From: Lytechinus pictus
Taxonomy: Eukaryota
Direction of reading: 5' to 3'
Assembly (NCBI RefSeq): GCF_037042905.1
Contig: NC_087245.1
Span: 30,754,001 to 30,818,000, forward strand
Length of the DNA: 64,000 nucleotides
Shown here piece by piece: positions 24,801 through 27,800 of the stretch; position 1 is the first letter of the stretch; each line of letters opens with the position of its first letter. The translations under genes were made by a program, and so were the position numbers. The notes under the pieces are model-generated. The model searched no databases, was not told the DNA's origin, and saw nothing but the letters and a program-made list of their open reading frames with translations.

Positions 24801-27800
24801 TTCCCCTCACCTATTCTCTTCTCTCTGCGCAGAAGAGCCTGGTATGATGTCTCTTCTGAACCACAATGAACATATCAAATTCCACTGATATCAGTTCTAC
24901 TATCCTTCTATCCAATCCATCTTTCATTCTATCTTTCCACTCACCTGTTCTCTTCTCTCAGCACAGAAGAGCCTGGTATGATGTCTCTTCTGAACAACAA
25001 TGAACATTATATCAACTTCCACTGATATCAGTTCTACTATCCTATCCAATCCTGCCTCCATCCATCTATCATTCTAGCTTTCTACTCACCTGTTCTCTTC
25101 TCTCAGGACAGAAGAGCCTGGTATGATGTCTCTTCTGAACCACAATGAACATATCAAATTCCACTGATATCAGTTCTACTATCCTTCTATCCAATCCATC
25201 TATCATTCTATCTTTCCACTCACCTGTTCTCTTCTCTCTGCACAGAAGAGCCTGGTATGATGTCTCTTCTGAACCACAATGAACGTGATACCAGGCTCAT
25301 AGAAGTCTTCCAAAGAACGGCAGGCATTCCGGATGGCTGTCATTTCTTGAGCTAGCACCTGTTGGAAACAATGATTAATAAAAGTGCTTTAATCAAAACA
25401 GTGTCCACTATACCTTGCAGATATATTTGTACCCAGGTCATTGCAGTTGCAGCCTCAGTGATTACTTCACCAGGTCATATTTTTATTTCAAATTCCTCAC
25501 ACTATGACATTCAATACATGTAGTATTTTATCACTCCAAATAGGGTAACAGTTACTTTTTCATTCTCTGTTATTAGTCAAAATGATTATATATGTATAAA
25601 ATTGAATCTGTTGTGTTCAATTGTGTTTATCTATAGTAGGATATACAAAAAAATATCAAATGATTTGTGTATTATGCCATGAACTGTATAGTAAATGTTT
25701 CCAAAATATTAGATATGTATTCACCACATTAATATTTGCAATATAATGATTCAAATATTTGTTCCTAAATTATTTGCATTGCAAAGTAATAAATATATTG
25801 TTAATGTTAATTAAAAATAAGATTTGAAATTAACATATGAATGTTCATTTTAGCGACTTAAAAAAATACTCTGTTTTATGGCTAATGACCTCCATCTGAA
25901 AAAATAGCTTATACCCACCTGTAAAAATTGACCTTCGCTGACCCCATCCCTGTACATAATGATCCTAGCCGGTTTAAATCTAGTTGACCGGTAGAATTCC
26001 ATCAGGAGTTCCCTGACCATTCCCATCAGGTCCTGGATGATTTCCACACGGTGATTCTGGACTCGAACGCTGGCACAATAACGGCTTGGATGGCCGTCCA
26101 TACTACCAACAACCTGTCATGAAAACATAAGGGACATATTACAGCCTCAAATGTTTGCACAATGATGGCTTGAATGGCAGTCCATACTACCAACAACCTG
26201 TCATGAAAACATAAGGGACATATTACAGACTCAAATGTTTGCACAATAACGGCTTGGATGGCCGTCCATACTACCAACAACCTGTCATGAAAACATAAGG
26301 GACATATTACAGACTCAAATGTTTGCACAATAACGGCTTGGATGGCCGTCCATACTACCAACAACCTGCCATTAAAACATAAGGGACATACATGTATCAG
26401 AGACTCAAATACTTGCACAATCACGGGAGTAAATCTGTGAAATCATGCTATTCAAGTGAGGGGGGGTGTGCACAGTAATGCTTGGATGGCCATCTATACT
26501 ACCAACAACCTGTCATGAAAACATATCAAGGGACATAATTTATACTCTGTTTGCCCAATGGCTTGGATGGCTGTCCATACTACTCATAACCTGTCATGCA
26601 AAAATGAGGGACATATTACGGTCTCTTTATGTATACACAATCATAGGTTGAATGGTTGTCCATACTACCAACAACTTGTCATGAAAAGATAAGGGATATA
26701 TTATACACTCAAATGTTTGCAAGGTAACGGCTTGGATGGCCGTCCATACTACCAACAACCTGTCATGAAAACATAAGGGACATATTACAGACTCAAATGT
26801 TTGCACAATAATGGCTTGAATGGCAGTCCATACTACAATGGCCGTCCATACTACTCACAACCTGCCATTAAATCATAAGGGACATATCAGAGACTCAAAT
26901 ACTTGCACAATCACGGGCGTAAATCTGTGACATCATGCTATTCAAGTGAGGGGGGGGGGTGTGCACAGTAATGCTTGGATGGCCATCTATACTACCAACA
27001 ACCTGTCATGAAAACATATCAAGGGACATAATTTACACTCTGTTTGCCCAATAATGACTTGGATGGCCGTCCATACTAGCCACATTCTGTCATCAAAACT
27101 AAAGGGACATATCATACTCTCAAATGTTTGCATAATCATGGCTTGGATGGCTGTCCATACTACTCATAACCTGTCATGCAAAAATGAGGGACATATTACG
27201 GTCTCTTTATGTATACACAATCATAGCTTGAATGGCCGTCCATACTACCTACAACTTGTCATGAAAAGATAAGGGATATATTATACACTCAAATTTTTGC
27301 AAGGTAACGGCTTGGATGGCCGTCCATATTACCCACAACTTGTCATAAAAACAGATATATATGTATAAAATGAGGATACAGTCTGTGTAGTTCCAAGTAG
27401 TTCAATACAAGGAATGACAGACAAAAGAGCTAGGAGGAAGGCGAGGGCAGCATCTTTATCAGCATCTGATTCACTGCCAGCCTCTTTCATCTGTACTTAC
27501 TGCTCTAGAGATGGCCAGTCTAGAGTGGGACTCCACAGCCACTTTAGAAAATGAATCACCTAGTGCTACATCATCATCTCTCAAGACAAAAGGATGCAGA
27601 CAATGACAACGAATATAACAGACCTTATAAACTCAAACGTTTGCACATAACAGCTTGGATGGCATTTATTATACCCATGGCATGCTGGAACATTCAGAGA
27701 ATATATTCAGAATACAAATCAAGACTTATATGTTTGCAAAGTAACCTGTCATGAGAATGTATGGATTGAATGAAGGACATAATCTTCACTGATTACACAA

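Follow-up and report, generated by a model that had tools for sequence, protein, structure and literature searches.

How does a gene keep to one acceptor when the edge of the exon has been copied many times over in the intron before it, and what kind of repeat are such copies? The question is raised by an Argonaute gene on the minus strand of the 64-kb window analyzed here (the window being the whole stretch of DNA, 64,000 nt), in which the end of intron 16 and the start of exon 17 recur in tandem upstream of the true junction. We consider the array to be a "mirage" minisatellite, in which the junction has been copied 13 times and the RNA seen uses the genuine copy, and which is likely a tolerated by-product without a function of its own. 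We put the probability of this reading at about 0.82.

The exon 17 junction array and its host gene

The gene model has GT..AG borders at all 21 introns, and its exons measure 24-337 nt. The predicted protein is identical to P0014 (Strongylocentrotus purpuratus argonaute-2, name as given by the source) at 909 of 944 columns (96%), and in a protein search with a single exon as query, 67 aa matched P0014 at 100%. The sequence-only reading had labelled the gene PIWI. P0014 scores 1445 bits against human AGO2 and at most 167 bits against PIWI-clade chains; because the window protein is 96% identical to P0014, we assign the gene on these sequence comparisons to the AGO clade and reject a PIWI-clade Argonaute, and from the bit scores and the human AGO2 alignment the name PIWI fits only the domain. 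Exon 17 matches the Pfam Piwi domain and opens with the codon GTT (valine). The catalytic motif positions in the window protein are D651, E691, D723, and H861, which we take to be the catalytic tetrad by assignment from human AGO2, to which P0014 was aligned here. Elsewhere in the model, ATGTCACAG stands directly before the modelled exon 13 acceptor (31674-31683, minus strand) and codes MSQ, which is present in P0014; with no AG preceding this stretch, either the window protein does not have these residues or the edge of exon 13 differs.

Table 1. Features of the Argonaute locus, in window coordinates.
Feature	Position	Strand	Basis
AGO-clade Argonaute gene, 22 coding exons, intact 928-aa frame; first coding exon from 51963, last to 18774	18774..51963	-	tblastn, edges fitted by hand
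Putative acceptor mirage, 13 copies of 84-nt junction unit upstream of exon 17	26114..27356	-	TRF, self-alignment, gene model
Exon 16, carries first catalytic Asp (GADVTH); donor GCT|GTAAGT	27941..28031	-	gene model; joined to exon 17 in run X4 record 28
Exon 17, 195 nt; authentic acceptor CAG|GTT at 26114|26113; donor CAG|GTGGGT	25919..26113	-	gene model and contig
Higher-order block duplication, 26395-26773 versus 26885-27353	26395..27353	-	self-alignment families, unit identity matrix
Older decayed unit remnants, CAG|GT at 27745	~27600..27760	-	alignment score 58
Candidate stop-containing pseudo-exon, 144 nt, decoy acceptor to cryptic GTGAGT donor	26859..27002	-	matrix from 21 gene sites
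Candidate stop-containing pseudo-exon, 118 nt, decoy acceptor to cryptic GTATGT donor	26392..26509	-	matrix from 21 gene sites
Putative donor mirage following exon 18; ~134-nt unit with ~60 nt from the exon end and a GTGAG donor, present in 5 extra copies	24501..25223	-	tandem-repeat search, self-alignment
Putative acceptor mirage before exon 19, 3 extra copies, AG kept by 1	23957..24399	-	self-alignment
Putative acceptor mirage before PAZ-domain exon 9, 3 extra 88-nt units, CAG intact in 2	34011..34361	-	tandem-repeat search, self-alignment

TRF and self-alignment both recover an 84-nt tandem array that, true junction included, spans 26060-27356 (best self-alignment E = 0.0). Each unit comprises, on the minus strand, the final 43 nt of intron 16 and the initial 41 nt of exon 17, arranged head to tail, just as had been proposed from the letters alone (an intron end, CAG, and about 41 nt of exon). 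The proposed count of about 14 decoy acceptors holds in that the array is real; the decoys themselves are 13, and 14 is reached only when the true acceptor is counted as a unit. The first exon-like bases of copies 1 to 13 lie at 27339, 27255, 27170, 27086, 27002, 26861, 26759, 26675, 26590, 26509, 26365, 26281, and 26197. It was also held that each decoy is an AG|GT site, which is too broad: the junction reads CAG|GT in nine copies, CAG|AA in one (27086), and CAA|GT in three (27339, 27255, and 26675), with an in-register AG retained by 10 of the 13. The pyrimidine tract attributed to the unit is present, though modest, at 13-16 of 21 bases.

Over -40..+41, identity between the copies and the true unit is 75-98%. 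The copy at 26281 agrees with the true unit at 83 of 84 bases, the exon-like part is intact (41 of 41 bases) in the units at 26365 and 26281, and the copies at 26759, 26281, and 26197 equal the true acceptor exactly over -20..+3. By a matrix drawn from the gene's other acceptors, the true acceptor scores 5.6 bits, within the 2.8-11.4 of the gene's 21 real acceptors; all splice-site matrices used here were built on the 21 sites of this one gene and are rough. Read in the exon 17 frame, all 13 copies run into a stop within 15-35 codons, and translation of the best copies gives the 16 residues followed by a stop that had been predicted for near-perfect copies. The modelled stops fall after D651 and before E691, D723, and H861, so the claimed truncation ahead of the catalytic E, D, and H is upheld, and they lie five junctions upstream of the last exon. 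The 138-codon open frame that crosses the array (26442-26029) lies in another frame of the repeat.

Splicing evidence from sequencing runs

Sequencing runs matching 22900-28100 numbered 23, each covering a small share of it (best share 0.10); all matches are contigs, and none is annotated as RNA, a label without bearing on expression. The findings below come from the matches listed for four of these runs, X1, X4, X13, and X15; such contigs show presence only and drop rare forms, and more joints may exist beyond those listed. X4 and X13 contain RNA, as both hold spliced joints, and steady-state RNA hides the targets of decay. Record 28 of X4, a 433-nt contig at depth 16.5 with 0 differences from the window, links 27941 to 26113 and extends across exon 17 beyond the branch point at +41. 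It is the unbroken contig over the exon 16-17 junction, found in one of the two spliced runs; records 12 and 14 of X13 are shorter contigs over exons 16 and 17, at depth 20-23. Among the matches listed for X15 is exon 17 with 12 intron bases, and none of them gives interpretable information on the array. The main spliced form uses the authentic acceptor at 26113 and the copies are skipped, in agreement with the expectation that the spliceosome passes over every upstream copy.

Record 13 of X13 covers 103 nt (26252-26354) at depth 3.99 with 0 differences and amounts to one turn of the repeat. Its 73 words each occur 2-4 times in the window, with a mean of 3.0, which leaves a depth of about 1.3 per copy. 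Low-level pre-mRNA or DNA summed over the copies may explain this contig; leak, that is, splicing to the copies, is another possible source, and if the whole contig were leak it would represent about one-sixth of the summed depth. The donor array after exon 18 holds 54 three-copy words, yet it has no depth in either spliced run, and depth is zero in both X4 and X13 in all six bins of 24118-25161, which take in most of the donor and exon 19 arrays.

An assembly could build a spurious tandem array out of wrongly stacked reads or fused haplotypes, a reading left some room by run coverage: the best run shares 0.10 of the stretch's words and none shares half, too little to check copy number against same-species DNA. 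Against such an artefact, which we regard as exceedingly improbable, the identity matrix shows pairwise differences of 2-35% among the units and a nested pattern, the independent record 13 of X13 carries unit-to-unit sequence with 0 differences, and a relative (X1) carries decayed units.

Two further observations concern the neighboring exons and intron 19. Across 22960-23956, runs X4, X13, X1, and X15 contain another Argonaute-like sequence, whose identity in exons 19-20 is about 94% and which dominates both spliced runs. Its contigs over these exons, at depth 560 and 107, carry 11 differences from the window in 190 bases and, by sequence, likely represent a close paralogue of the window Argonaute; they were left out of the evidence for the window gene, whose contigs have depths of 16.5 and 23 in the spliced runs, contig depth being unable to rank genes. 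Within intron 19 (23414-23700), two short dispersed repeats, the second tRNA-like by eye, have very high depth in all four runs.

Because exon 17 begins with a GTT valine codon, the copies place AG beside GT, and the sequence-only reading had suggested that they could act as weak recursive-splicing points. The two dinucleotides are indeed juxtaposed in 9 of 13 copies, but stepwise removal of intron 16 at these points is very unlikely. The donor regenerated on joining exon 16 would be GCT|GTTGTT, which scores -6.0 bits (-6.0 to -8.6 over the copies) against 4.0-12.7 for the 21 real donors and falls below the median of 1852 intronic GTs (-2.6 bits); the native CAG|GTTGTT itself reaches only 0.7. 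The true exon 17 starts with the same GTTGTT, so active recursive use would destroy the exon. The ratchet points described in the available text of PMC8605326 lie in long introns and regenerate mostly strong donors, whereas intron 16 is only 1827 nt long. The copies thus resemble the sites treated there in having AG|GT juxtaposed inside an intron, and differ from them in a far weaker regenerated donor, a short intron, and their nature as copies of the start of a coding exon.

The copies had also been put forward as substrate for intron gain under the Rogers tandem-duplication model. If a gain were in progress, the opening 41 nt of exon 17 would come from a copy, and the other units would turn into a new intron. 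Such a route is proposed for mirages in the Fig. 7 legend of PMC3087553, a potato intron was made by a junction-spanning duplication (available text of PMC4974935), and two units have fully intact exon-like bases. The route would require a donor at the exon end of the copy and a matching acceptor within exon 17, but +41 is followed by AAAC, not GT, and the sole in-register candidate seen is TAG|TATG/GTA|GTATGG near +10, at 2.6 bits. As PMC4974935 presents it in the part available, the Rogers model duplicates an exonic AGGT segment, and the cases of intron gain by tandem duplication are ATP2A1 and potato RdRp, the potato gene having copied an intron end plus exon start. The present array has in common with the model and both cases a tandem duplication that includes splice signals, and with potato the parts copied; it differs in that neither a new intron nor a new exon is seen, the AG that was duplicated is the end of the existing intron, and the copied exon end has no usable donor. 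An existing intron boundary was copied and the intron merely grew, with 27941-26113 the only junction in the contig seen and the RNA in that X4 contig missing a single 1827-nt intron, and we judge intron gain in progress to have very little likelihood.

Array history and other junction arrays in the window

The mirage reading is consistent with the internal structure of the array. As had been noted for a block of about 490 nt, 26460-26559 and 26953-27052 are 99% identical at a spacing of 493; self-alignment also pairs 26558-26773 with 27138-27353 at 96%. Sister units across the block duplication are 93% (u12/u6), 93% (u11/u5), and 98% (u9/u4) identical, at offsets of 490-493 and 580. The two exon-proximal units match the true junction at 93 and 98%, and the others at 75-87%, except u7 at 95%; sub-groups of closely related units within the array show repeat turnover. 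Beyond the young array, the alignment score of the older remnants was reached by 0 of 500 shuffles, the shuffle maximum being 34. Block duplication, sister-unit identities, and remnants bear out the idea of a staged expansion.

A coding-like stretch on the plus strand (27370-27560), a genome-wide repeat by contig depth, separates the young array from the older remnants. Its reading presumably resembles the C-terminal end of a non-LTR retrotransposon ORF; a Pfam search of 27378-27554 returned no family.

A founding duplication across the junction would have left one complete exon at its 3′ end and so would have cost nothing, and slippage or unequal exchange could then have amplified it. An array of about eight units may next have been duplicated as a block and lost units through two internal deletions, while the copies adjoining exon 17 were probably re-made more recently from the true junction. 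Across the exon-like parts there are 31 distinct substitutions, distributed 11/10/10 by codon position, of which eight are synonymous (8/31, versus 20.5% expected); on these counts the copies decay without coding selection. Duplicated alternative coding exons were rejected on the same distribution and on the stops in all 13 copies.

Run X1, which is DNA-type and carries another organism label, holds intron pieces about 88-91% identical to the window. Among the matches listed, a 522-nt X1 contig has exon 17 followed by units that align to 27045-27199 and next from 26964, with many differences. As exon 17 is followed by decayed units there, the array by this sequence comparison predates the split from the X1 organism and is arranged differently in it. 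Persistence of units in the relative fits neutrality, and would also fit a weak function.

Exon 17 is one of several junctions affected. Self-alignment finds 13 local duplication clusters in the window, six of them within the gene span, and four of those six lie across splice junctions, namely acceptors 9, 17, and 19 and donor 18. In the arrays at donor 18, acceptor 19, and acceptor 9, every copy that bears an AG or GT leads to a stop. Intron 18 (23957-25223, 1267 nt) is about 92% mirage (723 + 443 nt), with the five donor copies adjoining the three acceptor copies. Placed at random, a first duplication of such length would take in a junction in 11-18% of cases; with the exon 17 array left out, the rough chance of at least three of five in-gene clusters lying on junctions is 0.024, for one gene under a simple null. 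Like arrays at three other junctions indicate a general mutational habit.

Two units of the donor array, at 24824 and 24700 (minus strand), have an AG of 6.3 bits 14 nt before a GTGAG copy, too short a distance for a usual exon. A possible 45-nt in-frame cassette, from an AG after GTTC within the donor-array units, was rejected with a score not above 0. Further local tandem duplications, at offsets of 68-310 and without a modelled exon edge, lie at 723-1494, 2906-3313, 7797-8382, 15020-15225, 16308-16538, 21633-22113, and 43983-44148, of which those in 15020-16538 may be in or past an unmodelled 3′ UTR; for the seven clusters outside the Argonaute gene model, exons are not established. Exons of an OATP/SLCO transporter occupy 59100-63500 on the minus strand (PF03137, E 2.4e-12 for 59107-59472), and self-alignment found no junction array among these OATP-like exons at about 59-63.5 kb, apart from a simple repeat. 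On the plus strand, 3929-5470 is a 514-codon frame without a stop, for which no Pfam family was found at E 0.1.

Acceptor choice, significance, and known relatives

With three copies identical to the true site from -20 to +3, and one almost identical throughout the unit, acceptor sequence cannot select the site. The choice would come from features downstream of +41, namely the shortest cross-exon distance to a strong donor together with exon sequence absent from the copies. The exon 17 donor (9.7 bits) is 195 nt from the true acceptor and at least 279 nt from the copies, and in all four arrays the site that is used or keeps the frame yields the shortest exon. Exon definition thus likely explains the skipping of the copies, as the sequence-only reading had presumed, but its ground, the lack of a downstream donor for every unit except the last, was stated too strongly: donor-like sites at 26858 (GTT|GTGAGT, 6.1 bits) and 26391 (CAT|GTATGT, 6.9 bits) score within the 4.0-12.7 range of the 21 real donors. 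Size alone would be no bar either, the 279-nt exon from the nearest decoy being within the range of this gene. In human data, as given in the available text of PMC9225289, competing sites beside long introns are governed by cross-exon proximity, which for 3′ splice sites takes the form of a weakened upstream preference, not a strict rule. The present case is like that exon-centric rule in that identical competing sites lie beside introns of >250 nt and the site nearest across the exon is used; it is unlike it in that PMC9225289 deals with human data and two-site designed minigenes, and here 10 AG-bearing rivals compete in an invertebrate.

Any leak to the copies would carry an early stop and, with stops lying five junctions before the last exon, would likely be removed by nonsense-mediated decay. 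Leaky decoys could on that basis tune dosage, some transcripts using a copy or a pseudo-exon and being degraded, so that array length sets Argonaute output. The X13 contig of a single unit could be read in this way, its depth being 4 where the exon contigs reach 20-23; 10 copies keep the AG, three of the 13 cannot be told from the true acceptor between -20 and +3, two cryptic donors have scores in the range of real ones, and array units are present in the relative. The same contig is, however, explained by summed copies, the X4 contig is unbroken past the branch point, arrays of this type occur at three other junctions, which speaks for a general mutational habit, and the copies decay and lose AGs; for amphioxus, the available parts of PMC3087553 and PMC3902484 report no aberrant RT-PCR products. 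We therefore think leak-based tuning unlikely. A broader version, in which mirages are made by a junction-aimed process (transcription- or splicing-coupled) and re-seeded from the live exon edge, with leak into decay scaling with array length, so that the variable repeat would be a dosage dial for RNA silencing in this miRNA-class Argonaute, is hinted at by the three of five other in-gene duplications on junctions (0.024) and by the X13 contig at about one-sixth of summed depth, and is likewise doubtful.

On the mirage reading, the exon 17 array alone matters little, although it can lead gene predictors and short-read mappers astray. As a natural experiment on how splice sites are chosen it is clean: one acceptor is taken from several identical ones in an essential-type gene, which places the cue downstream. 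Of wider interest is how often tandem repeats in this genome sit on exon edges. Should leak track copy number, repeat length would control the dose of Argonaute.

The closest known relatives are the mirages of amphioxus, whose hosts are Adh3, the globins BflGb6 and BflGb9, troponin C, and PGBD5 (available text of PMC3087553 and PMC3902484). Their units range over 10-160 bp, with the splice dinucleotide kept in many but not all copies (PMC3087553, in the part available), and they splice normally according to the same parts of both papers. The sea urchin array agrees with them in its head-to-tail copies spanning an intron-exon boundary, an 84-nt unit within the reported range, occurrence on acceptor and donor sides, partial retention of AG or GT (the AG in 10 of 13 copies at exon 17), mRNA joined at the authentic site, and sub-groups of near-identical units. 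A literature search that reached few subscription papers found no echinoderm mirage, and one for sea urchin Argonaute paralogues, with the same reach, yielded nothing. The present case differs from amphioxus in its echinoderm host, in its 14 units against 3-6 in BflGb6, in its higher-order block, and in the presence of four arrays in one gene. Mirages, their normal splicing, and an intron-gain model for them are already known from amphioxus, and what is added here is the extension of this lancelet repeat type to a sea urchin.
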